From an uncultured Pirellulales bacterium (GTDB lineage Bacteria > Planctomycetota > Planctomycetia > Pirellulales > CAYNRE01): a DNA stretch of 28,446 nt. Location: NCBI GenBank assembly GCA_964434905.1, contig CAYSXM010000001.1:1-28446 (forward strand), given 5' to 3'. A program made the translations under genes and the position numbers. Below, in pieces: positions 266 through 25,626 of the stretch. How positions within the stretch are numbered: the first letter of the stretch is position 1; the number at the start of each line of letters is the position of its first letter. The notes beneath the pieces were generated by a model that saw only the letters and a program-made list of their open reading frames with translations, was not told where the DNA came from and did not search any database.

Positions 266-2626
266 ATGAGCACGGACAACCAAACTTCGCCCGGCGGTTG
301 GCCGGTGCTGTCGATCGTGGTGCCTTGTTTCAACGAGGCAGCCAACGTGCCCGAACTGGCGCGGCGGTTGTTGACCACCTTCGATGCGTTGGGGTTCGCG
401 GCCGAAGCGCTGCTGGTCGACGATGGCAGCCACGACGGCACACTGCGCGCGGTGCGGGCCGAGGCAGCGCGCGACGCACGGATTCGCCCTTTGGCGCATG
501 CCAGCAATCGGGGTCTATTTGCCGCGTGGCGCACCGGGTTGGCCGAGGCGCGGGGCGACTATTTCGGCGTGATCGATGCCGATTTGCAGTACCAGCCCGA
601 GGACCTGGCGCGGCTGCTGGCGCGGCTGGCGCAGGGCGATTGCGACGTGGCCCAGGGGGTGCGGGTCAATGTGCGCGAAAAGGGGGGCTTGCGGTTCTGG
701 CTCAGCCGGGGTTTCAACGCGCTCTTGAACCTGGCATTTCGCATGGCGTTGGCCGACAACAAGTCGGGTTTTTTCCTGACCCGGCGCGACGCGGCGCTCG
801 ATTTTCTGGACTACGGCAGCCGCTACGTCCACCCGCAATCGTTTGTCATGGTATCGGCGCATCAGCATGGTTACCGCATTGGCGAGCTGCGCACATTCTT
901 TGCGCCGCGCGAGCAGGGCGCATCGTTCTTGGGGCGTTGGCCACTGCTGGCGGCCTGGGTCTGTTTTGTCGACGTGTTGCGCGCGCTGCCTGAGTTTCGC
1001 TGGCGGCGGCGGCGCATCGAGGCAGTGGGGCGGGCCTTGGCGGTGGCCGGGGTCGACGTGCGCCGGGGGTTGCCGGTCCGCGCGCCGGCTGAAGCCCGGC
1101 GCTGGCGGCGCTATGTGCGCGCCATGCCGGTGCATCATTGGATGATTGGCCGCGACGCCGGCGAGTATTACGAGCAGTTGGCGCAGTCGCAGTGGCTTGC
1201 ACGCCCGGCGCTCGAGGAACTGCAGCGCACTCGGCTGGCGCACCTGGTGCGGCATGCCTACCGGCATTCGGCGTTTTATCGTCAGCGGATGGATGCGGCG
1301 GGCATTCGCCCCGAGCGGGTGCAGTCGATGGCCGATTTGGCGGAGCTTCCCCCGCTGACCAAGGACGATATCCGCGCCCATCTGCACGCGGGTTTGTTGG
1401 CCGACAATGTGCAGGTGCGCGACCTGTATCCCATTCGCACCAGCGGCTCGACCGGCAATCCCCTGTTGATGTATGTCGATCGACCGCAACTGGAAATGCG
1501 GTGGGCCGCGACCTTGCGCTCGCAGGAATGGACCGGGTATCGGTTTGGTGATCGCTGCGCGCGGCTGTGGCATCAGACGATCGGCATGTCGCGGCGGCAG
1601 GTGGCACAAGAACGGCTCGACGCCTGGCTTTGTCGGCGGCACTTCGAACCGGCCTGGCAGATGCGGGCAGACAACCTGGCAGCGGTCGTCGAACGGCTCC
1701 GCGGGCATCGCCCGGTGCTGATCGACGGCTACGCCGAGAGCCTCGACCTGTTGGCCCGATTTCTGGCCGAGCAACCGGGAAAGTTTCCGGGGTTGACCGG
1801 CCTGATGTCGTCGGCGCAGACCATGCCGGGGGCCAGCCGCGCGCGGATCGAAGCGGCGTTTGGCGCGCCGGTGTTCGATAAGTATGGCGCTCGCGAGTTC
1901 AGCGGCATCGCCTACGAGTGCGCCGAGCACCAGGGCTATCATGTGGTAGCAGAAAACGTCATCGTCGAGATCGTGCGCGATGGCCGCCCCGCGCGCCCGG
2001 GCGAAATGGGCGAGGTTTGGGTGACCGATCTGAACAACCTGGCGATGCCGCTGTTGCGGTACCGCTTGGGCGACCTGGCACGGGCGATGGACGATCGGCC
2101 GTGTGCCTGTGGTCGGGGGTTGCCGCGGATTGGCGAAGTTCTGGGGCGCACACAGTCGATCGTGGTGGGGACCGAGGGGCAATTGGTGCCGGGGAGTTAT
2201 TTCGCGCACCTGCTCAAGGAATATGACTACGCGATCGAGCGCTTCCAAGTGGTTCAAGAGCGCGTGGGAGAACTGGAGCTGCGCATCGTGCGTGGGGGGC
2301 GTTTTTCGCCTGCGGTCGTCGAGCAAATTCTAGCGCAATTCCACGAGCGTTTGGGTGCCAGCCTGCGGATCGCCGTGCGGTTCGTCGACGAGTTGCCGCT
2401 GGGGCAAACCGGAAAATTCCAACACAGCGTGAGCCGGTTGCGGTTCGATTTCCAGTCGGCCCAGGTGGCGTGTGCACCGCAGGAATGTGGAGACGACCAG
2501 ACCGGCGCCACGCACGATGCAATAGGTCACGGCGCAATGGGTCACGACACTGCGGGGCCCGACAACCCTGCGCAGCGGCAGGCCGATCGTTGGTCTCCAC
2601 CTCGCACAGGGACTTCCAAGGAATAA
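266..2626 (+). CDS. Fusion: N-terminal GT2 (DPM1-like polyprenol-phosphate glycosyltransferase) + C-terminal CapK/phenylacetate-CoA ligase-like adenylate-forming (ANL) domain
   Basis: GT2 motifs LSIVVPCFNE, LLVDDGSHDGT, NRG, IDADLQY (DxD). ANL motifs LPPLTKDDIR, RTSGSTGNP, DKYGAREF, VTDLNNLAMPLLRYRLGD, RFQVVQE. One uninterrupted 786-aa frame. Confidence 0.85.
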   Translation: MSTDNQTSPGGWPVLSIVVPCFNEAANVPELARRLLTTFDALGFAAEALLVDDGSHDGTLRAVRAEAARDARIRPLAHASNRGLFAAWRTGLAEARGDYFGVIDADLQYQPEDLARLLARLAQGDCDVAQGVRVNVREKGGLRFWLSRGFNALLNLAFRMALADNKSGFFLTRRDAALDFLDYGSRYVHPQSFVMVSAHQHGYRIGELRTFFAPREQGASFLGRWPLLAAWVCFVDVLRALPEFRWRRRRIEAVGRALAVAGVDVRRGLPVRAPAEARRWRRYVRAMPVHHWMIGRDAGEYYEQLAQSQWLARPALEELQRTRLAHLVRHAYRHSAFYRQRMDAAGIRPERVQSMADLAELPPLTKDDIRAHLHAGLLADNVQVRDLYPIRTSGSTGNPLLMYVDRPQLEMRWAATLRSQEWTGYRFGDRCARLWHQTIGMSRRQVAQERLDAWLCRRHFEPAWQMRADNLAAVVERLRGHRPVLIDGYAESLDLLARFLAEQPGKFPGLTGLMSSAQTMPGASRARIEAAFGAPVFDKYGAREFSGIAYECAEHQGYHVVAENVIVEIVRDGRPARPGEMGEVWVTDLNNLAMPLLRYRLGDLARAMDDRPCACGRGLPRIGEVLGRTQSIVVGTEGQLVPGSYFAHLLKEYDYAIERFQVVQERVGELELRIVRGGRFSPAVVEQILAQFHERLGASLRIAVRFVDELPLGQTGKFQHSVSRLRFDFQSAQVACAPQECGDDQTGATHDAIGHGAMGHDTAGPDNPAQRQADRWSPPRTGTSKE
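2513..2572 (+). repeat. Degenerate 15-bp in-frame tandem repeat (about 4 units) in the C-terminal tail
   Basis: cacgatgcaataggt / cacggcgcaatgggt / cacgacactgcgggg / cccgacaaccctgcg = HDAIG HGAMG HDTAG PDNPA. Confidence 0.6.
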
Positions 2627-2767
2627 CCGGAACCATTGGTTTTGCGTGCCACGGGCTGGGGCAGCGCGGAAGAGGGGCTGGTCCATCCGACGGGCAGGGC
2701 CCGTGGCCACACGCATCGCGTATCCACCCATGCCACACGGTCCACGTCATTCTTCGGCCGACTCTGA

Positions 2768-2826
2768 CGGGGCGCCGGGTGCCATGGGGCGCGGGGCGCC
2801 GGGTGCCTTGCGGCGCGGAGCGCCGG
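2768..2826 (+). repeat. 24-bp tandem repeat (about 2.5 units) spanning the likely DUF362 start
   Basis: cggggcgccgggtgccatggggcg / cggggcgccgggtgccttgcggcg (2 mismatches) / cggagcgccgg. Confidence 0.75.
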
Positions 2827-4169
2827 TCGCTCTGGCGCGGGTGGCGCCGCACAACCATGGCTTGCACTGCGCTATCGGTGCAGGGTGGGCGGCCTGCCCT
2901 GTGGCCGCGGCGGTCGATCAATTGTGGACGGCGCTCGACGACCCCTGGCAGGCCGTGCCGGTTGGGGGCCGGGTGGTGGTCAAGCCGAACTTTGTGGCCG
3001 ATCGCGATCGCGAACACGTGCTTTCCGACGCCGAACTGGCCGCCACCTGTACCGACACGGTGCTCTTAGAGTTGGTGTTGCGACGCGCCTGGCAGGCGTT
3101 GGGCCAGCGGGGTGAACTACTGGTCGTCGATTCACCCATTGAAGGGACGGACATTCAGGCGACGCTCGACCGGTTGGGCGTGAACCACTGCCTGGCGCGC
3201 TTGCGTGCGGAAGGTATCTCCGTGGCGTTTCGCGATCTGCGCGATTTCACGCTGAAGCGACACTTCTGGCTGGACGATGCGCGATTTGCCAGACGCTCTT
3301 GGAATGTTGGCTGGCTCGAGCGGCAGGCTTTGCCCGGCGACCCCGAGGGCTATCAGGCGATCGACCTGGGCAGGGCCAGCTATTTCGAGGACGGTTTTAC
3401 CGACTTCGACCGCTTGCGGTTCCACCAAAGCGCGCGCGGCAATTTGCGCGCCTGGCACGCCCCGGGTCGGCATGTTTACTGGCTGGCCCGCTGCGCGCTG
3501 GCGGCCGATTTTTTTGTCTCGCTGGCCAAGCTCAAAACACACAAGAAATGCGGCGCCACGTTGGCGATGAAGAACCTGGTGGGGCTCACGCATCGCAAGG
3601 AGTGGATTCCGCACTATCGCCGCGGCGGGCCGCCCGGCGGCGACGAGTTCAACACCGAAACCACTTGGGCGGCGCGGCGCGCCTCGCGCTGGCGACGCGT
3701 GAGCATTCCGGGTGGCCACTCGCTGGTGGTCAATGTGGTGCGTCGTGAAGGCCGGGCGGGCGGCGTGGAATCGGGCAACTGGCATGGCAACGACGTCGTG
3801 TGGCGCGTGGCGCGCGATTTGAACATCGCCTTGCTTCAGACCGATGCCGGGGGCCAATTACAGCCGCGGAGAACTCGCGGCTATCTGGCGCTGATCGATG
3901 GCCTGACCGGTGGCGAAGGCGAGGGCCCGTTGCGACCCGTGCCCGTGGCGTCGGGTGTGCTGGTGGCCGGTTGCGATCCGTTGAGCGTGGATCGCGCGGC
4001 GTGCCGGTTGATGGATTTTCCCAAGGGCAGCGTGCCGATGGTCGAAGCGCCTTTGTGGGGTAGTTATTGGTTGGGGACCAACGATCTGGCGGCGCTGGAT
4101 ATCCGCCCCGCCGAAGCGGCCGACTGGCGGATTCCGTTTCGCCCACCATCGGGCTGGCTCCGCGCGTAA
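2784..4169 (+). CDS. DUF362 domain-containing protein
   Basis: Motifs VVVKPNFV, LLVVDSP, ADFFVSLAKLKTHKKCGATLAMKNLVG, LIDGLTGGEGEGP, LVAGCDPLSVD. Start uncertain: ORF track gives 2646; ATG 2784 chosen because domain-like sequence begins at PVALARV. Confidence 0.8.
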   Translation: MGRGAPGALRRGAPVALARVAPHNHGLHCAIGAGWAACPVAAAVDQLWTALDDPWQAVPVGGRVVVKPNFVADRDREHVLSDAELAATCTDTVLLELVLRRAWQALGQRGELLVVDSPIEGTDIQATLDRLGVNHCLARLRAEGISVAFRDLRDFTLKRHFWLDDARFARRSWNVGWLERQALPGDPEGYQAIDLGRASYFEDGFTDFDRLRFHQSARGNLRAWHAPGRHVYWLARCALAADFFVSLAKLKTHKKCGATLAMKNLVGLTHRKEWIPHYRRGGPPGGDEFNTETTWAARRASRWRRVSIPGGHSLVVNVVRREGRAGGVESGNWHGNDVVWRVARDLNIALLQTDAGGQLQPRRTRGYLALIDGLTGGEGEGPLRPVPVASGVLVAGCDPLSVDRAACRLMDFPKGSVPMVEAPLWGSYWLGTNDLAALDIRPAEAADWRIPFRPPSGWLRA

Positions 4170-5262: not shown

Positions 5263-6639
5263 CTATTTTCCGGCGCTAGCCGGGACGTCGGTGGGACCCA
5301 CGATGCGGACATTGGTCGACAGGAAGTAGGGGGCGCCTTCCTCGCCAAACACTGCTTCGCCGAAGACCGCGGCGAAGCCGGTGGCGGGTACCGGCATTTC
5401 GTAGCGATAGCCATCGGCCGTGGTTTGCACCGGAAACGAAGACCACTTGGCCGGCCGAAAGTCCTTGGTGGGCGAGGTGGCTACCCAGGCGACGACTTCG
5501 CGGGGAGGCTGATCGCTGGACAGGTTCAGGGTCAACTTGTTTTCGGCTTCAGCCAACTTCCACGAGAGCTGGGGTAGTTTCATCTGGCCCGTCATGTGCT
5601 TGTGCAGCGCGCTGATGCTGCCGACCAGCCGTCGGAAATCGTTCAGGCCATGCACGTTGTTAGGCACGTAGAGAATGTATTTCTCGCCTTGCAGATCGTC
5701 CCAATAGATGTTCAACGCGTCGAGGGTCCAGTAGGGATCGTTGGTGCCCATGATCAGCAACTTGGGCTGGGTCAGTGCGTCGCGATAGCTATAGGGGTCG
5801 ACAATGGCCGACAGGGCCTTGCCCTCGGGGGTTTGGTTCTTTCCTTGGATGCCGCGCTTGGTATAGTCCTCGATCTGCACCGAGTACTCGCCCCAGGTGG
5901 CCAACTGATGTTCCATCTGCTTGGTCGTGTTGAGCATGTCGATCACCATCGGGGCAATGGCCTTGGCACGAGGATCGACCGCGCCGGTCAACCAAGTCGT
6001 CCAGCCGCGCTTGCTCGCGCCGGTAACCGTGAAGTTTTTGATGCCGAAGCCCCATTCCTTTTGCGCAAATTCTTGCGCGGCATCCATCGCGCGTACCGCA
6101 CTTTTCACCATGGGCAACAGCAGCGGCCATTCGGGATCGCCGGTTTTTAGATACTCGTCGAACGTATAGGCGATGATTTCGTCTTCCACCTTGCCGTCGA
6201 AAATCGGCTGGAACGGTACGTGGTTCAACAGCACCACCGGCGCGTCGAGCTGCGCCACCACGCTCGACAAGACCGACAGTTCGCCCGGCAGCCGATCCTT
6301 ACTGGCGTCGAAGGGGCGCTCGAAGTGTTCGTCCCAGCCCCCGCCCGAAATCAACATCAGGGCATCCTTGGCCTCGGTCATTTTTGCAGGCCGCAGGATG
6401 ATGACCTGGTGCTTCCAGACGATACCGCGCCAGGTTTGCGAGGTGAGAATCAACTCGGTGGCCACCGTCTTGCCCAGCTCGCGCTCCGAGCGAATGGCCC
6501 AGTGGTAGCTGTCGTCGGGCTTTGCCACATAGGCGGCCAGGGCGCCAGGCGCGGCCTCGGCCGCGTTGGCTCGCGGAAGGGAGCCCGCCAGCACGGCCAC
6601 GCCAAACGCCACACCGATCCACCAGGCCGATCGCGTCAC
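5263..6639 (-). CDS. PhoPQ-activated pathogenicity-related (PqaA-family) secreted alpha/beta hydrolase
   Basis: LTSQTW, W.H.V.I, VPFQP, EDEIIAYTF, WPLLLPMVKSAVRAMD, nucleophile-elbow VTGASKRGWTTWL, IVDPYSY, GTNDPYW, VPNNVH. Start moved to GTG 6639 (SD GAGGAG upstream; signal-peptide-like N-terminus ending RANA). Confidence 0.85.
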   Translation of the reverse strand: MTRSAWWIGVAFGVAVLAGSLPRANAAEAAPGALAAYVAKPDDSYHWAIRSERELGKTVATELILTSQTWRGIVWKHQVIILRPAKMTEAKDALMLISGGGWDEHFERPFDASKDRLPGELSVLSSVVAQLDAPVVLLNHVPFQPIFDGKVEDEIIAYTFDEYLKTGDPEWPLLLPMVKSAVRAMDAAQEFAQKEWGFGIKNFTVTGASKRGWTTWLTGAVDPRAKAIAPMVIDMLNTTKQMEHQLATWGEYSVQIEDYTKRGIQGKNQTPEGKALSAIVDPYSYRDALTQPKLLIMGTNDPYWTLDALNIYWDDLQGEKYILYVPNNVHGLNDFRRLVGSISALHKHMTGQMKLPQLSWKLAEAENKLTLNLSSDQPPREVVAWVATSPTKDFRPAKWSSFPVQTTADGYRYEMPVPATGFAAVFGEAVFGEEGAPYFLSTNVRIVGPTDVPASAGK

Positions 6640-7002
6640 GGAAGTGCTCCTCAACGATGTAGGGAAGAAGGATGCCGGGCCGGTGGCCACGACAAGGTTT
6701 CAGACGGTGTTTCCAGGAATCGCTATTCGCCAGAACACCTGACCAACGCGACCGATCGCCACGCTGCACGAACCCGGCACGCTGCACAACCAAGCAGATT
6801 GCCAGCCGAGTGCCATATTATTCCTTGGCAGGGCGAGGTTCACAACCGGCCGCCGACCAACGGCAATGCGCGCTGCATCGCCCGCGCAACCCCAGGGGGG
6901 CGGCGAAACCAAGCCGGTTGAGTTCTGTAGCACCGCACCTGTCGGGAATACCCGGTGCCGGGTCGGTGGGTTTCAATTGGCGGTCTCGGGGCAGCGGCGC
7001 AA

Positions 7003-7021: not shown

Positions 7022-7209
7022 AAGGCCCCCCCCACTTGGCACGACACGCGGGCGGAAGTCGCCTTGTGGCCTGTTGGGGGTTCGGATATCTGTACGCCGC
7101 CGCGCGGCCTGCCGTCTCGTCTTTTCCGTCGCGTGGTCGCCTGGGCAGCCCGGTGCTGCCTCTTGTCGATGGTCTCTTCTGGTCTTTTGTGCCTACGGAA
7201 CCGCACTGC

Positions 7210-10200
7210 ATGGCCGGCGCTGGCTGGACCCGCCGTGTGATGGTTATTTCCGCCTGCCTGTGTGCAGCCGCGGTGGCACGCGCGCAAAGCGCCCCAGAGG
7301 AGCTGCCGCCGCCCGTTCCGCGGCAGGTGGCCGAAGACGCAACCCAGGTGGTCGACGTGCAGATTCAGGGGCACCGGGAAACTCCGCTGGCGCGCATCAG
7401 CCCCCATATTCGCACGCGTGCCGGTCGCCCCTTCGACCCCGAGATTGTCGAGGAAGATGTCCGCCGGCTCATTCGTTCGCGGCAGTTCATCGACGTGCGC
7501 CCGCACACCCAGCAGGTGCCCGGGGGCGTGGTGGTGGTGTTCCAAGTGGTCGAGCGGCGCACCATTCGCTATGTGCGGTATGTCGGTCGGGTGAAGGTCC
7601 GCCGAGAAAAAGCCCTCGCCGATAAGACCACGCTCAAGGTGGGCGATGCGCTGGACCCCTTTGCGGTGGAAGAGGGTCGCCGCAAGCTGGAAGAGTTTTA
7701 TCAGGAACGCGGCCACGGCAAGATCCGCGTGGCGGTGCTCGAAGGTGACAAACCCGACGACCGGGGCGTGATCTATCTGATTCACGAAGGCCCCCGGCAG
7801 CGCGTCTCCCAAGTGTCGTTTGTCGGCAATAGCGATATCGTCAGTGGACGCCGGTTGCAAACGCAAATCCAAACCCGCAAACCCTATGTGTGGTTGTTCA
7901 AGGGTTATGTCGACCGGGCCAAGATCGACGAGGACCAGGATCGGCTCACCGCCTACTACCGCAGCCTGGGTTTTTTCCAGGCGAAAATCGGCCGCGAGCT
8001 CGAGTGGGACGATGACAGCGACCGGTTGCACGTGACCTTCGTGATCAGCGAGGGCCCGCGCTACCAGTTGCGCGACGTGCGATTCCTGGGTCACACCAAA
8101 TTTCAGGAGGCCGAGCTGCGCGAAAAGCTCGAACTCACGGCGGGCGAGTTCTTTGATCAGGCCACGATGGACCAGGACGTTCGCAACATTCAAGACGTGT
8201 ACGGCGGCGCCGGCTATGTGTTTGCCAACGTCGTGGCGGAACCGCGATTCCTGGAAGAACCCGGCCAGCTCGACCTGGTGTACCGGGTGGAAGAGGGGTC
8301 GCGGCACCGCATTGGCACGATTACCGTGAAGATCACGGGCGAACACCCGCACACCAAGCAAACGGCGGTGCTCAACCGGTTGTCGCTCTACCCTGGCGAT
8401 ATCGCCGACATTCGCGAGCTGCGTTCCAGCGAGTTGCGGCTCAAGCGGTCGAGCATCTTCATGAACAACCCGGCGCAAGGGTCGGCGCCGCGGATCGTGT
8501 TTAGCGAACCAGAAACGGATGTGGAAAACCTGGCTGAACGCCCCACGCAGGACGGGGTGCGTGGTCAAAGCCCCGATCAGCCGCACGTGGTCCGCCGCCC
8601 GCCGGCCGGGGGATCGGGCGAGGGGGCCGACGTCCGGCCGCTCGATGTGGCGATTGTCGAGGAAGCCGAGCTCGAACAACTCAACGCGCCAGGCGCTGCG
8701 CGCCGCTGGAAGACTTTGGCACGCGGGTTGACGACCCTGCCGGCCGCGGTGTGGTCGTGGCGCGAGTCGCTATTCCCCAGGGGCGTGGCGCCGGGCGCTG
8801 TGCCTGGCGCGCCGGCTCCTTCAGCGACGAATCCCCAAGCTACTGCGCCGGCCGCCGGAGCCAGATCGTCGAACCCTCCGGCGCCTGCGGTGGCGAGGCC
8901 GGTGGTGGTGCGCGGCCAAGATGGCTGGTCCCCCTTCGGTGGCGCGGAAATGCCTAGCCCCTCGACAACCAACCGTGGAGTTTTTGGGCGACGCAGCCCG
9001 CCTGTCGCGTCGCCTGGCAGCGTGGCGCGGCGCGTGCCGCAATACACGGCACAGGTTCCCCCACCGTCGACCGATCCGCAACCGCCTCCATTGGTGCCGC
9101 TGGGTGCGCCGAACTCCGTTGGCGCTGCGCCGCAGGGCTATGCTCCGCCTGGTGGTTATGTGCCACAACCAACCTCTGGGGCCTCCGCTCCGTACACGTC
9201 GCCCTATTCGACTGCCGCGCCGCCGGCACCGTTTGCGCCGCCATCGACGAATCCTGCAGGCAGTGTTTATGCGCAGGTGCCCACCGGCGGCCTGCCGGCG
9301 CCGAACTATGCACCACCCTCGCAGGGCGCGCCGCCCATCGGCTATGCCGCGCCCGGCGGCGTGGGGGCACTGCCAGCCTCTGGCGCGTCTGCGAACCCGG
9401 GCATGGCGCCGCCGAGCGGTTACGACAATCCGGGAGAACTTTTTCCCGAGGGAGGCTACCTGAACGCTGCCGAGGAACCGACCCAGGACGTGCCGGTGGT
9501 GGTGGAGGTGGAAGAGACGCAGACCGGTCGGATCATGCTCGGAGCGGGTGTGAACTCGAATGCGGGTTTGGTCGGCAATTTTATTGTCGACGAGCAGAAC
9601 TTCGACATCAGTCGCTGGCCTGGCAGTTGGGCTGAACTGCGCGACGGGGTGGCGTTCCGCGGCGCGGGCCAGCAGTTTCGCCTGGAGGCGGTGCCGGGGA
9701 CGCAGTTCCAGCGCTATTCGGCCGTGTTCCGCGAGCCCTATCTGTTCAACACCCCGATCAGCTTTGCTCTGAGCGGGCACTTTTTCAATCGCCGTTATCG
9801 CGATTGGGACGAAGAGCGTTTGGGGGGCCAGTTGACCTGGGGATATCAGATACGGCCGGACCTTTCGGGCACGATCGGGCTGCGCGCGGAAAACGTCAAT
9901 CTGAGCAATCCGCGTACGCCTGCTCCGTTGGCGGTGACGCGCGCGCTAGGCAACAACGGGCTATACACCGCGCGGTTTGGGCTAGTGCAAGACACGCGAG
10001 ACAGCGCGTTCATGCCCACCGAGGGGCATCGCATCGACTTGGGCTATGAGCAGGCGTTTGGCGAGTTCTTGTTTCCCAAGATCGAACTCGACTTGCGCAA
10101 GCACTTCTTGATCCGCCAGCGGGCCGACGGATCGGGTCGCCACACGATCACGTTGTCGAGCACCACCAATGTCGGCCTCAGCACCTTGCCGGTGTTCGAG

Positions 10201-10557
10201 AACTATTTTGCCGGTGGTTTCTCCACGATTCGCGGTTACTCGTTCCGCGGTGCCTCGCCGCGCGATCTGGGGGTGATTGTCGGCGGTCGGTTCATGTTCC
10301 TGGCCTCGGCCGAATATATGTTCCCCATCACCGCCGACGACATGTTGCGGGGGGTGATCTTCTGCGACACCGGTACCGTGGAAACCGATGTGAAAATTCG
10401 CAGCGAGAACTTCCGTGTGGCGCCGGGTTTTGGCCTGCGGATTACCATCCCCGCCATGGGCCCGGCGCCGATCGCGCTCGACTTCGCCTTCCCCGTGCTG
10501 AACGCACCGGGCGACGCGATCCAGAACTTCAGCTTCTTCGTGGGCTTCAATCGGTAG
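7210..10557 (+). CDS. bamA: Outer membrane protein assembly factor BamA/Omp85 (5 POTRA domains + beta-barrel) with a large low-complexity insertion
   Basis: Five POTRA-like units ending ...VVER / IHEG / ISEG / VEEG. Barrel begins EETQTGRIMLGAGV; FREPYLF; loop-6 motif IRGY; C-terminal strand NFSFFVGFNR. Start moved to ATG 7210 (signal-peptide-like, AVARA-Q). Confidence 0.9.
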   Translation: MAGAGWTRRVMVISACLCAAAVARAQSAPEELPPPVPRQVAEDATQVVDVQIQGHRETPLARISPHIRTRAGRPFDPEIVEEDVRRLIRSRQFIDVRPHTQQVPGGVVVVFQVVERRTIRYVRYVGRVKVRREKALADKTTLKVGDALDPFAVEEGRRKLEEFYQERGHGKIRVAVLEGDKPDDRGVIYLIHEGPRQRVSQVSFVGNSDIVSGRRLQTQIQTRKPYVWLFKGYVDRAKIDEDQDRLTAYYRSLGFFQAKIGRELEWDDDSDRLHVTFVISEGPRYQLRDVRFLGHTKFQEAELREKLELTAGEFFDQATMDQDVRNIQDVYGGAGYVFANVVAEPRFLEEPGQLDLVYRVEEGSRHRIGTITVKITGEHPHTKQTAVLNRLSLYPGDIADIRELRSSELRLKRSSIFMNNPAQGSAPRIVFSEPETDVENLAERPTQDGVRGQSPDQPHVVRRPPAGGSGEGADVRPLDVAIVEEAELEQLNAPGAARRWKTLARGLTTLPAAVWSWRESLFPRGVAPGAVPGAPAPSATNPQATAPAAGARSSNPPAPAVARPVVVRGQDGWSPFGGAEMPSPSTTNRGVFGRRSPPVASPGSVARRVPQYTAQVPPPSTDPQPPPLVPLGAPNSVGAAPQGYAPPGGYVPQPTSGASAPYTSPYSTAAPPAPFAPPSTNPAGSVYAQVPTGGLPAPNYAPPSQGAPPIGYAAPGGVGALPASGASANPGMAPPSGYDNPGELFPEGGYLNAAEEPTQDVPVVVEVEETQTGRIMLGAGVNSNAGLVGNFIVDEQNFDISRWPGSWAELRDGVAFRGAGQQFRLEAVPGTQFQRYSAVFREPYLFNTPISFALSGHFFNRRYRDWDEERLGGQLTWGYQIRPDLSGTIGLRAENVNLSNPRTPAPLAVTRALGNNGLYTARFGLVQDTRDSAFMPTEGHRIDLGYEQAFGEFLFPKIELDLRKHFLIRQRADGSGRHTITLSSTTNVGLSTLPVFENYFAGGFSTIRGYSFRGASPRDLGVIVGGRFMFLASAEYMFPITADDMLRGVIFCDTGTVETDVKIRSENFRVAPGFGLRITIPAMGPAPIALDFAFPVLNAPGDAIQNFSFFVGFNR

Positions 10558-10663
10558 TCCACCGCGCGGAACCAGCGCCGACCTGAGTGTGTGGGGCGGC
10601 TTCACCGCGGTTTCTCGCGGTTTCAGTGCGGCTGCGCGACCTGCCCCCCCGCGCAAGATCGGA

Positions 10664-10693
10664 TTGACCCCCAACGCGCTGGTCGGCTATACC
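10664..10693 (+). promoter_or_regulatory. Candidate sigma70-type promoter for the wzm-wzt operon
   Basis: TTGACC (10664-10669) - 18 bp - TATACC (10688-10693), in the 309-bp gap after bamA. Confidence 0.4.
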
Positions 10694-10866
10694 ATCTGCC
10701 CGGGTCGGTCCGTGAGCCAGGAGGGCGTGCGGTGTTGGCCCGGGGCCAGGTGGCCCGGGCAGGGCCTGCCTGTGGTCCTCATGCATTCCGAGTCTGGTTG
10801 CATCGACGACGGGTTCGCCAACTCCCTGGCGCCCTGACACTCGCCGCAAGGAAGAGGCGCTCTGGG

Positions 10867-11649
10867 ATGGGTAGCTACTTGGCCAGCGTGTGGCGCTGCC
10901 GATATTTTTGGCTTTCGCTGGCACGGCTCGATCTGATGAATCGATACCGTCGCAGCATGCTGGGTATCGGATGGTCGCTGTTGAACCCCGTGGCCATGGC
11001 CTTGGTGCTGTGCGTGGTGTTCAACAAATTGTTTCAACTCGACGCGCGCGATTTCTGGTTGTTTCTGCTAGCCGGGCTGAGCTTTTGGAATTTCATAGCC
11101 GGCAGCGTCATGCAGGGTTGCCAGGCGTTTCGCATGGGCGAATCGTACATTCGCCAGCACCGCACGCCGCTGGCGATCTACCCCCTGCGAACGGTGTTGT
11201 CGGGCTCGTTCCATTTGATACTGGCGCTCTTGGTCGTGGCGGTGATCAGCACCATTCTGCACGGCGGCGCCGACCCGACCGCGTGGGTCAGCCTGGTGCC
11301 GGCGCTGGGGCTGATCTTGGTCTTGGCGTGGTCGCTGGCGGTGGTGGCGGGGTTGGCCACGGTTTATTTTCCCGATGTGCAACACCTGAGCGAGATTGGG
11401 TTGTCAATCTTGTTTTACGCCACGCCGATTATTTACCCCACCACCTTGCTGCGCGAGCGCGGCCTGGGCTGGCTGGTCGATTACAACCCGCTGGCGTCGT
11501 TCGCCGACCTGGTGCGGCAGCCGCTGCTGGCAGGTGAAATCGCCTCGGGCGCGGCCTTTGCTACGGCCACGGTCACAGCCGGCGTGGCGGCCCTGGCGGC
11601 CGGTTGGCTGCTTTCGCGGTTTGAACATCGGCTAGTTTTCCACCTCTGA
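10867..11649 (+). CDS. wzm: ABC-2 polysaccharide export permease (Wzm/RfbA-like)
   Basis: DL..RYRRS.LG..WSLLNP signature, about 6 hydrophobic helices, YATPIIYP, NPL; directly followed by the ATPase. Start set at ATG 10867. Confidence 0.9.
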   Translation: MGSYLASVWRCRYFWLSLARLDLMNRYRRSMLGIGWSLLNPVAMALVLCVVFNKLFQLDARDFWLFLLAGLSFWNFIAGSVMQGCQAFRMGESYIRQHRTPLAIYPLRTVLSGSFHLILALLVVAVISTILHGGADPTAWVSLVPALGLILVLAWSLAVVAGLATVYFPDVQHLSEIGLSILFYATPIIYPTTLLRERGLGWLVDYNPLASFADLVRQPLLAGEIASGAAFATATVTAGVAALAAGWLLSRFEHRLVFHL

Positions 11650-11674
11650 TGTCGCACCCGGGGCAAACCTGGCC

Positions 11675-12433
11675 ATGGCCCATATTCATCTTGATCACGT
11701 CGGTCTGACGTTCCGGGTCCGCAAGGCGGGCCGGGTCAGCCTCAAGGAATTCCTGTTGCGGCGGCTGTTTCGACCCACTGTCAATCCGGTGGTCGAAGTT
11801 CCCGCACTGCGCGACGTCTCGCTCGATTTTCGCGAAGGCGACCGCGTGGGGGTAATCGGCCACAACGGGGCGGGTAAGAGCACCCTGCTCAAGGTGCTGG
11901 CCGGCGTTTATCCGCCGAGTGCCGGCAAGTTGTACGTTACCGGGCGAGTCAGTTCGCTGTTCGACATCTCGCTCGGCTTCGAGCCCGAGGCCGACGGCTG
12001 GACGAACATCAAGCTGCGCGGCTATTTGCAAGGCGAAACACCGCAATCACTCCGCGCCAAGACCCAGTCCATCGCCGAGTTCAGCGAACTGGGCGAATTC
12101 ATGGACCTGCCCGTGCGGTTCTATTCGGCGGGCATGTTGGTACGGCTGGCGTTTTCGATCGCCACGGCCATCGAACCCGAGATCCTGCTCGTCGACGAGG
12201 CTCTGGGGGCCGGCGACATCGCTTTTCAAGAAAAAGCCCGCGAACGGATCCGGCAGATGGTCGAACGCGCCAAGATCGTGGTGGTGGTGAGCCACGACCT
12301 GGATACCCTGGTGCGGCTGACCGATCGTGTGGTCTGGCTAGACCACGGGCGGGTGCGGTTGGTGGGCGCCCCGCGCGACATTGTGGAGGCTTACCGCCGA
12401 CACATGCAGTCGGACGTGGCCCGCGCCGCGTGA
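11675..12433 (+). CDS. wzt: ABC polysaccharide export ATP-binding protein (Wzt/RfbB-like), ATPase domain only
   Basis: Walker A GHNGAGKS, signature FYSAGMLVRLAF, Walker B ILLVDE, H-loop VSHD; 252 aa. Confidence 0.92.
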   Translation: MAHIHLDHVGLTFRVRKAGRVSLKEFLLRRLFRPTVNPVVEVPALRDVSLDFREGDRVGVIGHNGAGKSTLLKVLAGVYPPSAGKLYVTGRVSSLFDISLGFEPEADGWTNIKLRGYLQGETPQSLRAKTQSIAEFSELGEFMDLPVRFYSAGMLVRLAFSIATAIEPEILLVDEALGAGDIAFQEKARERIRQMVERAKIVVVVSHDLDTLVRLTDRVVWLDHGRVRLVGAPRDIVEAYRRHMQSDVARAA

Positions 12434-12690
12434 TCGCGGCGCATGGCGCAGCGCACCGGCCATCTGGCACGGCCTGGCGCCAGCAGTGCTAGCAGTACGT
12501 TGACGAATTCGACGGGCTGCTGGCAGTACACACCGGGCGCGGTCGGGCAGTCGTTCGGCCATGGGTTCGCGCTGGCGCGTGCGTCGCACGGAATCCGGTC
12601 TTGGCCCAGGCTACCTGGTTCGGCTAACCTGCCCGACTCGGCCCCGCGACAGGGAGCCGTGGCCAAGTGGTTCGCAGCCCGAGGCGCACG

Positions 12691-13893
12691 ATGCGCATCT
12701 TGTTCGATGGCCTGCCGTTGCGTGGGCAAGTAACCGGCGTCGGCCACTATGGCCGGCAGCTCCTGGCAGCGCTTTCGCGCCACTGCGCCGTCGAGCGCGT
12801 GGGTGTGTTCGATGGTTGGCGCGTCGACAGTGCCGCTAGTTTCTTGGCATCATTGGAAACCGCACGCCCCGAAAACACTTGGCGCCGACAACTGGCCCGC
12901 GTGCGTTGGAACCTGCCGCTAGGTCGCCAGGTAGCTCAGCCGTGGCGTTCTTGGCGTTTGGCGCGGCAAGCGCGCCATGCCGAGTGGTCGCTGTTTCACG
13001 AACCCAACTACGTGGCGCCCCGCTTCGCGGGTCCGGTGGTGACCACCGTGCACGACATGGCGTTCTTGCGCTACCCGCAGTTTCTGCCGCGTGATCGCCG
13101 GCGGTTCTTGACCGCGGCGATTCGACCGGCGCTGGAACGATCTGCGGCGATACTGGCCGATAGCCAATTCACCCGCGACGAACTTCTGGAGTTGTGTCCG
13201 TGGGTGGAATCCCAGCGCGTGGTGGTGGCGCACCTGGGAGTCGATCGCGAGGCGTTTCGGCCGGAGGCAGATTGCCAGGCCGACCGGGAACGGTTGCGCC
13301 CTTGGGGTTTACCCGAGCAGTTCCTGTTGTACTTGGGTACGCTCGAACCGCGCAAGAATTTGCAAGGCTTGCTGGCGGCCTATGCGCAGTTGCCGGACCG
13401 CCTTCAGCGTGCCTTTCCATTGTTGCTGGCGGGCATGCGGGGCTGGAACGAATCGTATTTTCGCGGACCGCTGCGGGCCTTGGAGCAGGCGGGGCGGATT
13501 CGGCGCTTGGGATATGTGCCCCAGGCCGTGGTGCCGGCGCTGTTGCGGTCGGCCACGTTGTTTTGTTTTCCCAGCCTGTACGAGGGCTTTGGCTTGCCTC
13601 CGCTGGAAGCCATGGCCGCGGGAACCCCGGTGCTGGCGGCCAGCGCGGCCTCGCTTCCCGAGGTGCTGGGGCAGGCCGCGCTGTGGGTCGATCCGCACTC
13701 GCCCCAGGATATCGCGCGCGGTCTACACGATCTGCTAGAGGACGAGCATCTGCGTGCCGCCTATGCGCGACGGGGCTTGGCCCATGTCGGACAATTCACT
13801 TGGGATCGCACAGCCGAGGCCACGGTCTCGGCCTATCGACGCGTGTTGTGGGAGCGAGCCAGCGGTCGACCGATGGCGCGGCAGGCCGCGTAG
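12691..13893 (+). CDS. GT4 (GT-B fold) glycosyltransferase
   Basis: [46 protein letters not shown] (EX7E), FTW..TA. Start moved to ATG 12691. Confidence 0.92.
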
Positions 13894-13945
13894 TGCAACC
13901 GCGCGCGCCAGGCGCGCGGTGGAGCGTGGCCGAGGGGGAATCTGC

Positions 13946-15619
13946 GTGACCAAAACTAGCCAGCCACGAACTGTCGCGGCTTTGCCTGCCGCGTGGGCCA
14001 GTGACCCACGCTGGTTGTCGGTGGCGCTGCTGTTGACCATGGGGATCGAGGCGGTGTTGCTTACCGCATCGCCGATCGTGGCGCGCGATGGTCTGGGGTT
14101 TATCGAATATGCGCGCCAATTGTCTATGGAACCGCTCCGCGCGGTGCGCACGCACGACCAGCACCCTGGCTATCCGGCGCTGGTCTGGGGTGCCGAGCGC
14201 GCGCTGGCCTGGTGCGGCGCGGCGGAAGACACCGAAACCTGGACCGCCGCGGCCCGCCTGACTTCGGCCGTGGCAGGGGTTGTTTGCGTGGCGTTGCTGT
14301 GGTGGCTGGCCCGGGAGCTGCATGGGGTCGAGGTGGCCAACGCCGCGGCGCTCGTGGCCGCGGTGTTGCCTGTGTTGCGACAGAACGCCGCGGATGCACT
14401 CTCGGACATGCCCCATTTGGCCTGCTACCTGGGTGCCACCGCGGTAGGGTTGTGGGGGCTGCGCCACGCGCGGCTGAGTGCCTTGGCAAGCGCCGGAGCG
14501 CTGTCGGGCGCGGCGTATTGGATTCGCCCCGAAGGCCTGAGCGTGGCCGCCGTGCTCATGGTTTGGTTGGCCATGGCACGAATGGCCGAGACGGCCTGCA
14601 ATTGGCACTGGCGCAGCCGCGCCGTGTTGGTGGTCGGCCTGGGCGCGGCCCTGGTGGCGGCGCCCAACATGCTACTTACCGCCCGCGTGACCGGAAAACT
14701 GGCCAACAAGGCGCTGTGGGCCAGCACGGCGACACCGACCGGGCCCTTGGCCGCAGAGGTGGCGAGCGCCGCGACACCACGGCGCGTGGCCGCCGGGCCC
14801 GACTACGCGCACGAGCGGCGCGAATCGGAGCGACGCGAGTTCTTGGATCGCTCGCGCCTCAAGTTGGCGGCGGGTGCGGTGACGGAACTGGCCACCGAAT
14901 GGACCAAGGCGCTGCAGTATGTCTTGATTTGGCCGCTGGCCGTTGGGTGGGCTCGGCTACGCCGCGCGTCGCCGCGGGGCGTTGGCGCGGGTCTGGTAAC
15001 CGCACTGATGGCCTGGCAAGGCGCGCTACTCCTGGCGCTATACTTCGTGGGGGGCTACATCAGCCATCGACACGTGATGCCCATCGTGGTCTTGTGTCTG
15101 CCGGCGGTGGCAGTAGGGGGGGGCGATGTGGCGAGGCGCATCCAGACCACGGCCTGGGGCGCGCGCTACCCGCGCTGGGCAGCGGCCGCGGTGGCGGCGG
15201 GCCTATTGGCGTTGTGCCTGCCGCGCGGTTTGCGCCCGATCAACGCGGCGTTTCGGCCCTTGCACGAAGCCGGCATTTATGTGCGCACCCACGCGGCGCC
15301 CGGCGATCGCGTGCTGACCAACGTGCCGCATGCGCTGTTCTATTCCGGGCAGCCGGGCCTGGTGCTGGTGAAAGATGGCGTTTACGACGTGGCCACGGCG
15401 CTGGATCTAGCCCGCGACAAGCCGTACGCCTTCGTGGTGTTGGATGTGGGCGATCCGCTGCACTTTGACCAGAGCTGGCTGGCCCCACTCCAGGTGGACT
15501 ATGAGCGGGTACACGACAGCAACACCGCAGCGGTGAAAACGCACCACCACGTGGCGGTGTTTCGCCGGCGCGGCCTGGCCCAGGTGGCCACCCGGCCAGA
15601 AGCACCGCCGCCGCGCTAG
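13946..15619 (+). CDS. Polytopic GT-C fold glycosyltransferase (GT39/ArnT/PMT-like)
   Basis: First helix followed by an acidic loop (ARDG..F), HPGYP, about 11 hydrophobic segments, LSDMPH, YWIRPEG, soluble C-terminal domain. GTG 13946 with purine-rich SD (gaggggg). Confidence 0.65.
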   Translation: MTKTSQPRTVAALPAAWASDPRWLSVALLLTMGIEAVLLTASPIVARDGLGFIEYARQLSMEPLRAVRTHDQHPGYPALVWGAERALAWCGAAEDTETWTAAARLTSAVAGVVCVALLWWLARELHGVEVANAAALVAAVLPVLRQNAADALSDMPHLACYLGATAVGLWGLRHARLSALASAGALSGAAYWIRPEGLSVAAVLMVWLAMARMAETACNWHWRSRAVLVVGLGAALVAAPNMLLTARVTGKLANKALWASTATPTGPLAAEVASAATPRRVAAGPDYAHERRESERREFLDRSRLKLAAGAVTELATEWTKALQYVLIWPLAVGWARLRRASPRGVGAGLVTALMAWQGALLLALYFVGGYISHRHVMPIVVLCLPAVAVGGGDVARRIQTTAWGARYPRWAAAAVAAGLLALCLPRGLRPINAAFRPLHEAGIYVRTHAAPGDRVLTNVPHALFYSGQPGLVLVKDGVYDVATALDLARDKPYAFVVLDVGDPLHFDQSWLAPLQVDYERVHDSNTAAVKTHHHVAVFRRRGLAQVATRPEAPPPR

Positions 15620-19155: not shown

Positions 19156-20310
19156 TTACAGGCGTTCGACCACGGTGGCCGTACCTTGCCCGTGGCCGAT
19201 GCAGATTGCCAACAGGCCCAACGTGCCCTGCACATGTTCCAATCCGCTGAGCAGCTTTGCCAACAAGCCGGGCCCAGTGGCGCCGAGCGGATGGCCATGC
19301 GCGATAGCGCCCCCCCAAGGATTCACCCGCGATAAATCGGCGCCGGTCGCCTGCGCCCAAGCCAACACCACGCTGGAGAAAGCCTCGTTGACTTCGATCC
19401 AATCCAACTGATCGATCGTCACGCCGGCCCGCGCCAGCGCACGCTGCGTGGCCGGAATAACGCCCAACAGGCCCATGGTTGGGTCGCTGCCGACGGCCAC
19501 CCGCGCGCGGAACCTGGCCTTGGGGCGCAGTCCCGCCGCCAGCGCGGCCTGTCGATCGGCCACCAGCACCGCGGCGGCGGCGTCGGCCAGTTGGCTGGAA
19601 TTGGCCGCGGTGAGCACACCCTGACCCGCGGGGCGATAAGCAAGAGGTAGCGACGCCACCTTCGCGGCGTCGACGGTGGTGCGAATGCCCTCATCGCGCT
19701 GGGGAAGACACGCCGCGCCTGCGCTATCCAGCGCCGGTGTTTCGATCAACTCGCGGTGCCAGTGGGCGGCCGCTGCTGCTGCGGCGCGGCGCTGGCTTTC
19801 CATGCCATAGTTGTCGAGCATCTGGCGCGACAGCCCGAACTGCTGCGCGATGCGTTCGCCGCTTTCGCCCTGATGCACCAGTTCGTATCGTTCGGCCAGG
19901 GCGGGGTTCAACCGCTCCAATCCACCCACGTCGCTGAACATGGGCACGTGCGACAAATGTTCTACCCCGGCCGCGACCACGAATTGTGCATCGCCGGCCG
20001 CCACGGTTTGCGCGGCGAAGTGCAGCGCTTGCTGGCCTGATCCGCACCAGCGGTTGAGCGACACCGCCGGCACCTCGGGGGGCCAGCCCGCCAACAGCGA
20101 GGCCAGCCGCGCCACATTGGCTCCTTGCTCGCCACACTGGAACACGCAACCAACCTGCACATCGTCGACCCGCGCGGGGTCGATTCCGGTGCGGCCTGCC
20201 AATCCGCCCAGCGCATGTGCCAACAAGGCATCGGATCGCGTGTGCCGATAATAGCCATTGTTTTTGCCAAAGGGTGTGCGCACCGCATCGACAATCACCG
20301 GTTCGTACAT
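19156..20310 (-). CDS. Thiolase (acetyl-CoA C-acyl/acetyltransferase family)
   Basis: VDAVRTPFGK, catalytic Cys in LNRWCGSG, NEAF, GGAIAHGHPLGATG, C-terminal ICIGHGQG. ATG 20310 with SD GAGG. Confidence 0.93.
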   Translation of the reverse strand: MYEPVIVDAVRTPFGKNNGYYRHTRSDALLAHALGGLAGRTGIDPARVDDVQVGCVFQCGEQGANVARLASLLAGWPPEVPAVSLNRWCGSGQQALHFAAQTVAAGDAQFVVAAGVEHLSHVPMFSDVGGLERLNPALAERYELVHQGESGERIAQQFGLSRQMLDNYGMESQRRAAAAAAAHWHRELIETPALDSAGAACLPQRDEGIRTTVDAAKVASLPLAYRPAGQGVLTAANSSQLADAAAAVLVADRQAALAAGLRPKARFRARVAVGSDPTMGLLGVIPATQRALARAGVTIDQLDWIEVNEAFSSVVLAWAQATGADLSRVNPWGGAIAHGHPLGATGPGLLAKLLSGLEHVQGTLGLLAICIGHGQGTATVVERL

Positions 20311-20354
20311 GCATCCCTCGCGTGGTCTTTGTCCCAATGTCCATCGCCGCGAAA

Positions 20355-20384
20355 TTGACCCGGCTTTGGCAGCCAGACTACACT
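20355..20384 (+). promoter_or_regulatory. Candidate sigma70-type promoter for the DUF1553-DUF1501 operon
   Basis: TTGACC (20355-20360) - 18 bp - TACACT (20379-20384), in the divergent intergenic region. Confidence 0.55.
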
Positions 20385-20464
20385 ATAGGAGAGTCCGCTC
20401 GATTTCACGCCTTCGATCTTTCCACCCTGCCTCGCCGCACAACCGAGCGACTGGGGGCCCGCCA

Positions 20465-23314: not shown

Positions 23315-23318
23315 GCGC

Positions 23319-24746: not shown

Positions 24747-24953
24747 ACCCGGCTGATCCATGAACTTCGTCGCCAGCGATCGAAAGTGTTGTGGCCGCGA
24801 AGTGCTATTTGCTTTGCCAGTGCTCTGGGGCCTCTTGGTGATAACGTGAGTCCGGGCCGATGGCGGTTTGTCGCAGCGCGCGGACCGCCGGTCGCTAAAC
24901 GAAGCGGTACCTGGCACAAAGCTTCTCGACACACCAACCAACACGAGCAAGAC

Positions 24954-25589
24954 ATGACGCACTTGGTTCAAGGCCAGCGTGTGCTGGTTCGCGAAATGGT
25001 CAACGCCGACGCTCCCGCGCTGGTTGCCTGGCGCGGCGCGCCCGACGCACGGCGCTGGCTCGTCGATTGGCAGCCCCCCACCGTCGAAAGACACCTCGCC
25101 TGGTTCGCCTCGGCACAACAGGCGGGCGATGTGTTGCTGGTGTTTGCTGAACCCGGCACGAACCGGCCCTTGGCGGCCGGCGCGCTCTACCATTTCGATC
25201 GGGCTGGCACCTGCGGAGAATACGGCCGGTTGATCAAGGACCCCCAGGTCAGCGATTGGCTGATTCCGCGCGAGGGTCTGTATTGGACCTATCGACTGGC
25301 GTTCGACCTCTTGGGCGTGGCCCGGCTGCACACCGCCACGGGCGATGGCAACCAGGCGGTCCACCGTTTGGCTGAGGAATTCGGCTTCTTGCGCGAGGGC
25401 TTGCGACCACGGCATTTTCTCACACCCGAAGGCTATCGCGACATTGTCGAGTTTGGCATGTTTCCCGAAACCTTTGGTGCCTGTCGACCGGCGCTGGAAC
25501 AGGCGCTGTACGCGCCAGGCACGCCGCCCGAGTTCCTGCCCGACGCGGCACGTTACGCCGACCGCTGGCGGGCGCGATTTGGCCGCTGA
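24954..25589 (+). CDS. GNAT N-acetyltransferase (RimJ/RimL/PseH-like)
   Basis: REM...D...LVAWR, T.E.H.AWF, GEYGRL, LAFDLLG..RL, N....L.EEFGF.REG.. Start moved to ATG 24954. Confidence 0.8.
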   Translation: MTHLVQGQRVLVREMVNADAPALVAWRGAPDARRWLVDWQPPTVERHLAWFASAQQAGDVLLVFAEPGTNRPLAAGALYHFDRAGTCGEYGRLIKDPQVSDWLIPREGLYWTYRLAFDLLGVARLHTATGDGNQAVHRLAEEFGFLREGLRPRHFLTPEGYRDIVEFGMFPETFGACRPALEQALYAPGTPPEFLPDAARYADRWRARFGR

Positions 25590-25626
25590 CGGTGCGACGT
25601 GCCCACCCGCTTTTCTGGAGCCCTCG

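Follow-up and report, generated by a model that had tools for sequence, protein, structure and literature searches.

The window analysed here is a 28,446-nucleotide stretch that makes up one whole contig (CAYSXM010000001.1, assembly GCA_964434905.1) of an uncultured Pirellulales bacterium. At positions 266..2626 of its forward strand, it carries a gene for a 786 amino acid long bifunctional protein, in which an N-terminal GT2 glycosyltransferase of the polyprenyl-phosphate type is joined to a C-terminal adenylate-forming (ANL) ligase of the PaaK/CapK type. The assignment is based on the open reading frame (ORF; stop codon 2624-2626), its translation, its homologues and an AlphaFold2 model. The gene is genuine and intact, and its product is a two-part enzyme. 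This enzyme very likely couples the synthesis of a lipid-linked sugar to carboxylate ligation in the tailoring of envelope glycans. The specific mechanism that we rank highest, although somewhat short of probable, is the synthesis of a polyprenyl-phosphate-linked uronic acid coupled to ATP-dependent amidation.

The first-pass annotation of this DNA had described a single 786-residue frame with several signature motifs, and this description was accurate: the forward frame at 266-2626 is open for 786 codons and its product contains IDADLQY (residues 103-109), TSGSTG (392-397), YGAREF (540-545) and RYRLGD (598-603). The proposed in-frame fusion of a DPM1/ArnC-like GT2 domain with a CapK/PaaK-like ANL enzyme is likewise genuine. 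In the frame of the fusion gene, the guanine-plus-cytosine (GC) content by codon position has its maximum at position 3 (0.78). An antisense ORF at 515-2326 (603 codons) has its GC maximum at position 1, as expected in DNA with 67% GC, and is therefore regarded as a shadow frame. The AlphaFold2 model of the fusion protein has a mean predicted local distance difference test score (pLDDT) of 82.6 and a predicted template modelling score of 0.73. The C-terminal tail of the protein (residues 736-786; 2471..2623) is unconserved and predicted to be disordered (pLDDT ~30), and homologues stop near residue 735-750.

The GT-A catalytic domain (residues 15-222; 308..931) was assigned by Pfam, sequence matches in the PDB, Foldseek and residue mapping onto ArnC. 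Pfam Glycos_transf_2 (PF00535) covers residues 16-177 (E 1e-29), and the NCBIfam model for ArnC covers residues 15-222 (E 5e-19) with a score far under its equivalog cut-off. Sequence matches in the PDB are ArnC (E 5e-21), the dolichol-phosphate mannose synthase (DPMS) of Pyrococcus furiosus (E 3e-13) and GtrB (E 6e-10). When the AlphaFold2 model was compared with solved structures by Foldseek, the GT2 domain matched ArnC and GtrB; among reviewed proteins, it matched eukaryotic DPM1 (template modelling score 0.84 by hit, root-mean-square deviation 2.1 Å, residues 15-241), ArnC and RgtE, a dodecaprenyl-phosphate galacturonate synthase. The best matches in sequence and structure (ArnC, DPMS, GtrB, DPM1 and RgtE) are exclusively polyprenyl-phosphate glycosyltransferases.

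Residue roles were transferred by HMMER alignment to ArnC in combination with the published ArnC structure (PMC12690121). In ArnC, D48, N77, R205 and S210 contact UDP, D100, D102 and Q104 provide the candidate base and the Mn ligands, and R128, R137 and S141, which correspond to R117, R131 and S135 of the P. furiosus enzyme, are the acceptor-phosphate residues (PMC12690121). All of these are retained in the fusion: the donor-nucleotide contacts as D53, N81, R215 and S220, the metal and base residues as D104, D106 and Q108, and the acceptor-phosphate triad as R133, R143 and S147. The ten positions are invariant in the 36-sequence alignment on which conservation was judged, and which contains invariant residues in both domains and in the junction. 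The metal and catalytic-base motif DxD-x-Q (D104-A-D106-L-Q108) is encoded at 575..589. Thus, the GT2 domain is as intact as first claimed, and every catalytic, donor and acceptor-phosphate residue of ArnC, GtrB and DPM1 is kept.

The fusion differs from ArnC, GtrB and DPMS in that these enzymes possess transmembrane helices. No transmembrane helix was found in the fusion protein, in which the highest 19-residue Kyte-Doolittle mean is 1.4, and the C-terminal transmembrane anchor of bacterial and archaeal polyprenyl-phosphate GT2 enzymes is missing. In this respect it resembles eukaryotic DPM1; since this best structural match is likewise devoid of transmembrane helices, such anchoring is not universal to the family. 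The Arg-rich linker of about 60 residues in the first-pass annotation does exist (residues 223-292, 932..1141, with 16 Arg and Lys versus 5 Asp and Glu), but it is more than a passive connection, because it is predicted to form helices (226-246, 253-261 and 274-285 in the AlphaFold2 model) that superpose on the juxtamembrane region of ArnC and RgtE. D236, E243 and W292 are invariant within it. From the model, we read this segment as a membrane-interface element, as in DPM1, which has no transmembrane helices. Apart from these juxtamembrane helices, the fusion shares the GT-A fold, the DxD-x-Q motif, the acceptor Arg/Arg/Ser and the donor Arg plus Ser loop with ArnC, GtrB, P. furiosus DPMS, DPM1 and RgtE, and it differs from the polyprenyl-phosphate GT2 enzymes by an additional 440-residue C-terminal ligase.

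The ligase domain (residues 293-735; 1142..2470) was assigned by NCBIfam, PDB and Foldseek matches and by the Pfam family CapK_C (PF27533), which is listed for the fusion protein in precomputed annotation. NCBIfam models of PaaK-type ligases cover residues 307-703 (E 1e-47 to 1e-28), and Pfam AMP-binding gives a weak match to residues 474-587. The closest solved structures are BT_0428 (PDB 4r1l, E 3e-28) and PaaK1 and PaaK2 (2y27 and 2y4o, E 4e-24; Foldseek E 3e-26 for PaaK2), which share the compact ANL fold with an N-terminal helical subdomain; residues ~293-735 align with all three from this subdomain through the hinge, and a CxCGR region is common to BT_0428 and the fusion ligase. The top structural match in Swiss-Prot is CapK of Staphylococcus aureus (P39860, E 1e-27, residues 273-726, 18% identity), and the nearest ESM Atlas clusters are made up of CapK_C proteins to 71-88%.

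All core motifs of adenylation are invariant in the family, namely T392-G397, Y540, G541 and E544 (YGxRE), D588, R598, Y599, G602 and D603 (RYxxGD), and G716 and K717. The P-loop TSGSTG (residues 392-397; 1439..1456) aligns to the SSGTTG loop of PaaK, and K717 in G716-K717 (2414..2416) is the candidate C-terminal catalytic Lys of the adenylation half-reaction, which we take to be the residue of ANL motif A10. The ligase domain is therefore expected to be competent for adenylation, and it is complete, as the first-pass annotation had stated, with P-loop, YGxxE, ribose-binding Asp, hinge RYxxGD and C-terminal Lys all aligning with PaaK. The differences from PaaK1, PaaK2 and BT_0428 are nevertheless considerable: identity is just 22-25%, and the segment ~413-502, which forms the acyl pocket in PaaK, aligns poorly and displays invariant Arg, Glu, Trp, His and Gln instead, which would suggest a polar substrate. 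With 97 bits for TIGR02155, the PaaK equivalog (cut-off 646), and 126 for NF041878 (cut-off 700), the domain scores far below the equivalog cut-offs, as it does for all PaaK-type models, and is thus not a PaaK orthologue.

Hundreds of stand-alone proteins of ~450 residues are 31-48% identical to residues ~285-730 of the fusion, and members of the same ligase clade are also found on either side of a fused GT4 enzyme, in fusions that combine a methyltransferase with a glycosyltransferase, and as tandem ligases in one protein. The same metagenome-assembled genome (MAG) encodes a stand-alone CapK-like paralogue (5691-7001 of another contig) that is 36% identical to residues 303-739 and contains one in-frame TGA, which sequencing error, pseudogenisation or recoding could explain.

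The first-pass annotation did not recognise the architecture as characterised, but it is neither rare nor unnoticed. A word-indexed search retrieved at least 762 homologues of the fusion, and the top 120 of them are all 720-795 amino acids long, 49-64% identical over more than 90% of their length and derived from independent assemblies. A survey in which each species was represented by a single genome found relatives in at least 314 of these genomes, most of them from Polyangia, and an exhaustive search of representatives revealed at least 27 distinct 50%-identity clusters of full-length fusions, down to 32% identity. AlphaFold DB holds a cluster with the same architecture (template modelling score 0.75-0.80), and some copies are labelled 'PaaK-like adenylate-forming protein/glycosyltransferase' by the Joint Genome Institute (JGI). 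A misassembled junction, which the first-pass annotation had considered, is ruled out by the conservation of the architecture and the junction in hundreds of independent assemblies. That the architecture has no published characterisation was borne out: none was found in the literature on the fusion family or on CapK-type adenylate-forming ligases, whether CapK was sought as adenylate-forming protein, phenylacetate-CoA ligase, F390 synthetase or COG1541.

For the analysis of gene neighbourhoods, 80 loci were retained, including complete Sorangium chromosomes. The fusion gene usually lies within a module of two to four genes and not within a full polysaccharide locus. A DUF362 gene follows directly downstream in 29 loci, as it does in the window, and an extended short-chain dehydrogenase/reductase (SDR) of the sugar epimerase/dehydratase type adjoins the fusion in 34, mostly those without DUF362; one or the other is found within 3 kb in 59. 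In 26 loci, the fusion has a class I methyltransferase gene as its neighbour. The partner type switches several times between clades of the family tree, and four of five genomes with SDR-type loci contained no DUF362 partner anywhere. DUF362 was thus rejected as an obligatory partner on both counts, its adjacency in just 29 loci and this absence. DUF362 and the SDR take the same position beside the fusion in different clades, and their alternation could represent the non-homologous replacement of one tailoring step. NCBIfam assigned no specific sugar reaction to the neighbouring SDRs.

In a split form of the system, an SDR gene is followed by separate genes for a GT2 protein (243 aa) and a CapK protein (477 aa) with overlapping stop and start codons, a second SDR gene and two methyltransferase genes; this CapK protein is 48% identical to the fusion ligase. 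Many lineages thus far apart in sequence retain GT2 and CapK side by side, either in one protein or in neighbouring genes. Another stand-alone CapK relative overlaps the following DUF362 gene inside a Wzx-type heteropolysaccharide locus. A third is located on a metagenomic contig (1-12468), together with a 435-aa gene, DUF362, GT4 and radical-SAM/SPASM-methyltransferase genes; beyond these, the contig carries small ORFs and the gene for a phage tape-measure protein of 1679 aa (PhageMin_Tail). The CapK-DUF362 tailoring set may also travel on phage or prophage.

The DUF362 gene of the window (2646..4169, forward strand; Pfam PF04015, E 2e-23) is a 507-aa ORF whose true start is possibly further in. 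Pfam places DUF362 in one clan with the N-terminal family of LarA, the nickel-pincer lactate racemase (PMC11770544). By VIA-align, the AlphaFold2 model of the partner (pLDDT 71) matches LarA, Mar2 and LarAH structures with Z 16-17, the next-best match having Z 5.8, but the similarity covers just the LarA N-terminal domain (~residues 33-300). H299, K309 and H323 are invariant in 17 DUF362 partners, and this H-x9-K-x13-H pattern (spacing 10/14) resembles H-x9-K-x15-H (10/16) in the LarA homologue of the same genome. In LarA, the residues of this pattern serve as catalytic His, as the Lys that tethers the cofactor and as the His that binds Ni, and H299, K309 and H323 may correspond to them. Comparison of the DUF362 alignment with the LarA homologue of the genome by hhalign gave no match, so that the fold link is based on VIA-align and the Pfam clan. 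The presence of LarC was considered as a sign of nickel-pincer use and proved uninformative, because canonical LarA is also present in the same genomes.

As we picture it, the fusion would act as a peripheral-membrane, bifunctional glycan-building enzyme, which, having no transmembrane helix, would be held at the membrane by its Arg-rich amphipathic helices. The GT2 domain would move a sugar, most likely a (2-acetamido) uronic acid, from a nucleoside diphosphate (NDP)-sugar onto polyprenyl phosphate at the cytoplasmic membrane face. The ligase would then adenylate the C6 carboxylate of this sugar with ATP, and an amine, such as an amino acid or a similar compound, would displace AMP to form a lipid-linked uronamide. 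Stereochemical or redox tailoring of the same sugar would be added by the LarA-fold DUF362 neighbour in the Pirellulales bacterium or by the SDR epimerase/dehydratase in other clades, and often further decoration by a methyltransferase, before the product would be flipped and used in an envelope glycan.

We consider uronate transfer followed by amidation the most likely mechanism because the polyprenyl-phosphate glycosyltransferase signature can be combined with three anchors in known systems. VpsH of Vibrio cholerae is needed for the glycine on the N-acetylgulosaminuronic acid (GulNAcA) of a bactoprenyl-diphosphate-linked disaccharide, as was demonstrated by genetics and liquid chromatography-mass spectrometry (LC-MS) (PMC13463779, mBio 2026). 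Formerly annotated as phenylacetate-CoA-ligase-like, VpsH is described as partly CapK-like by its authors (PMC13463779). Its carboxylate-to-amide chemistry on a lipid-linked sugar is the reaction that we propose for the PaaK/CapK-like ligase of the fusion, and it provides the first functional hint for the CapK type. In contrast to the fusion, VpsH is a stand-alone protein of a Wzx/Wzy pathway that uses a diphosphate-linked disaccharide and is not fused to a glycosyltransferase; its own activation chemistry is putative, and what links it to the fusion ligase is its published description as PaaK/CapK-like.

The second anchor is the type 1 capsule of S. aureus, from which the name CapK derives and in which taurine is amide-linked to N-acetylgalactosaminuronic acid (PMC12043029). 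S. aureus CapK is the best reviewed structural match and the founder of CapK_C, the family carried by the fusion, but it is a stand-alone protein with 18% identity, and we found no published demonstration of its activity. Cj1438 of Campylobacter jejuni, the third anchor, is a fusion in which a GT2 domain (residues 1-325) precedes an ATP-dependent amidoligase (453-776), and the latter turns the C6 carboxylate of capsular glucuronate into an amide (PMC11800397). Domain order and logic are as in the fusion, with an N-terminal GT2 and a C-terminal ATP-dependent amidoligase in one polypeptide; Cj1438 differs in that its GT2 extends a chain and its substrate is the growing polysaccharide instead of a polyprenyl-phosphate-linked sugar. 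Its amidoligase, called simply ATP-dependent in the source paper, presumably belongs to the ATP-grasp and not to the ANL superfamily.

With VpsH (PMC13463779) and Cj1438 (PMC11800397) as precedents, the earlier suggestion that carboxylate activation is coupled to lipid-linked sugar synthesis, giving an acylated or amidated glycan unit, is still the best reading. The accompanying remark that the chemistry of CapK-like ligases is poorly defined needs correction in that this chemistry has no longer been wholly undefined since the 2026 work on VpsH (PMC13463779).

Several points weigh against uronate amidation on a polyprenyl phosphate. For the fusion family, we infer the donor sugar, the carboxylate and the nucleophile alike, and the link to VpsH and CapK is at family level, consisting of Pfam CapK_C, the Foldseek match with 18% identity and the description in the VpsH paper. 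In the 80 loci, neither a UDP-sugar 6-dehydrogenase nor an amine-supplying gene is conserved beside the fusion, and the conserved neighbours include no GT-C enzyme or flippase. VpsH acts on a diphosphate-linked disaccharide and the C-terminal domain of Cj1438 on a growing chain, and neither on a polyprenyl-phosphate-linked monosaccharide. Finally, the GT2 domain is without the transmembrane helices of ArnC and GtrB, so that the use of a lipid phosphate would rest on the conserved residues and on the DPM1 precedent.

The main rival, which we regard as possible but rather unlikely, is acylation of the sugar: the ligase would activate a small free carboxylic acid as its adenylate and attach it to the polyprenyl-phosphate-linked sugar through an amino or hydroxyl group, so that the lipid-linked product would be N- or O-acylated. 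Candidates for the acid are an amino acid, a short acyl group or a 2-hydroxy acid with a configuration set by the DUF362 partner. Free acids are the usual substrates of ANL enzymes, and PaaK, AjiA1, NatL2, ClxA and 2-hydroxyisobutyryl-CoA ligase, the closest solved relatives, all activate them; however, VpsH, the sole CapK/PaaK-like enzyme whose part in a glycan pathway has been studied functionally, puts an amine on a sugar carboxylate, and the founding CapK accompanies a capsule with a taurine-amidated uronic acid. A role of DUF362 in acid supply would agree with its LarA-family fold, as enzymes of this family act on 2-hydroxy acids (PMC11770544), but its absence from four of the five SDR-type genomes argues against an obligatory supplier. 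Within the 80 loci, the lack of a conserved uronate-forming dehydrogenase nearby favours acylation, whereas the lack of a conserved aminotransferase, which would provide an amino sugar as acceptor, counts against it.

Both of these mechanisms assume a lipid phosphate as acceptor of the sugar. That the GT2 domain instead extends a glycan or another acceptor, as in Cj1438, while the ligase decorates the polymer, appears unlikely to us. In addition to the Cj1438 precedent, this view can draw on the lack of transmembrane helices, on the fusion of the ligase clade to GT4 enzymes, which normally extend lipid-diphosphate-linked oligosaccharides, and on stand-alone CapK-DUF362 pairs within Wzx-type heteropolysaccharide loci. 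It is at odds with the invariance of R133, R143, S147 and the first Asp of the DxD motif, the proposed base, and with top structural matches that are exclusively polyprenyl-phosphate glycosyltransferases, including DPM1, which has no transmembrane helices itself and matches with a score of 0.84. The usual location of the gene in a small module and not in a full polysaccharide locus also speaks against it.

An ordinary acyl-CoA ligase that feeds a separate acyltransferase, with the fusion serving co-regulation and not coupled chemistry, is improbable. Homologues are automatically annotated as phenylacetate-CoA ligase, and PaaK homology does extend across the whole ligase domain; the scores for NCBIfam PaaK and CoA-ligase equivalogs are nonetheless far under their cut-offs (163 versus 300 and 126 versus 700), no acyltransferase is a conserved neighbour in the 80 loci, and the recurrent fusion of the clade to glycosyltransferases of two folds favours a ligase that works directly on the glycan. 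That the gene is a product of chimeric assembly or a pseudogene in decay is hardly credible: the contig stems from a fragmented MAG (1079 contigs, 5.3% contamination) and the gene is rare in its order, but the frame is intact with all catalytic residues kept, the architecture and the junction recur in hundreds of assemblies, complete Sorangium chromosomes included, and for a gene at a distance of 3 kb, family relatives possess orthologues with 63-67% identity.

This neighbouring gene is PhoPQ-related, and on the strength of its orthologues the contig belongs to the bin and a mis-binned contig was rejected. Named homologues of the gene place the host in the planctomycete order Pirellulales. The fusion itself is present in just 3 of 401 Pirellulales genomes, with one copy split over two contig ends and another 47% identical, and it is absent from all 30 nearest relatives examined; of the DUF362 partner, the nearest relatives of the host contain just distant relatives. 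In the family tree, the window copy falls into a well-supported clade of seven members, apart from a 70-member Myxococcota clade. Given its rarity in Pirellulales, the fusion was probably acquired by horizontal transfer. The simplest reading is that fusion and DUF362 form a patchily distributed two-gene cassette, probably spread by horizontal transfer, and the pair looks like a horizontally acquired accessory cassette in its Pirellulales host. The first-pass annotation had missed the conserved partners, the occurrence of GT2 and CapK as separate genes, and that this copy belongs to a planctomycete in which such a gene is an exception.

A more far-reaching proposal, which we consider a long shot, is that the fusion makes a so far undescribed class of lipid-linked donor, a polyprenyl-phosphate uronamide, and that DUF362 is a LarA-fold hydride-transfer sugar epimerase, possibly of the nickel-pincer type, that is functionally interchangeable with the SDR epimerases found in its place in other clades. 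If true, no LarA-type enzyme before DUF362 would have had a glycan building block as its substrate, and this would explain the widespread CapK-DUF362 pair. A lipid-linked uronamide, in turn, would represent a charge-neutralising modification route analogous to the Arn system for 4-amino-4-deoxy-L-arabinose (L-Ara4N) and the Rgt system for galacturonic acid (GalA).

Among the genes of bacterial polysaccharide loci that are annotated without a function, those for CapK-type ligases and DUF362 proteins belong to the most common. The fusion to a polyprenyl-phosphate glycosyltransferase narrows the likely substrate of the ligase to a lipid-linked sugar, and the single protein allows both activities to be assayed together. 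Since some of the Sorangium and Polyangium strains with a family member can be cultured, knock-outs and LC-MS of lipid intermediates are feasible. The scope is moderate, since both domains are known kinds of enzymes and the fusion is already in databases; new are the residue-level test of the polyprenyl-phosphate glycosyltransferase, the arrangement with separate GT2 and CapK genes, the way in which DUF362 and SDR partners alternate, the lack of DUF362 in four of five SDR-type genomes and the rarity in Pirellulales.

Among the other genes of the window, a same-strand run of envelope genes (7036-15619) is led by a gene for a 1173-aa Omp85/POTRA protein, the N-terminal ~340 residues of which have no assignment. 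It is followed by genes for a Wzm-/Wzt-like ABC-2 exporter (top NCBIfam match: galactan export), a GT4 and a PMT_2 protein, an ArnT-like GT-C enzyme. This run may be a glycan export or attachment cluster, and none of its genes is conserved beside the fusion elsewhere. Omp85, Wzm/Wzt, GT4 and PMT_2 were rejected as parts of the system, as a tblastn search of the 80 loci detected none of them in the vicinity of the fusion, and the PMT_2 protein is barely similar to the PMT protein beside the closest long relative (locus L009). Nor are the DUF547 and PhoPQ-related genes of the window conserved partners in these loci.

The fusion gene is preceded by a non-coding stretch (1-265). It includes, near the start of the contig, a run of 12 C (48-59), which could be a homopolymer tract or an artefact at the end of the assembled sequence. 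At 20258-24746, the gene for a PSCyt1/PSCyt2/PSD1 protein (1018 aa) overlaps that for a DUF1501 protein (482 aa), a typical planctomycete pair that agrees with the assignment to Pirellulales. A 988-aa ORF at 25345-28311, the predicted start of which is uncertain, overlaps the end of a GNAT-like ORF (24786-25589); it contains a GHL10/GHL6 glycoside-hydrolase-like domain in its C-terminal half, preceded by ~640 N-terminal residues without assignment.

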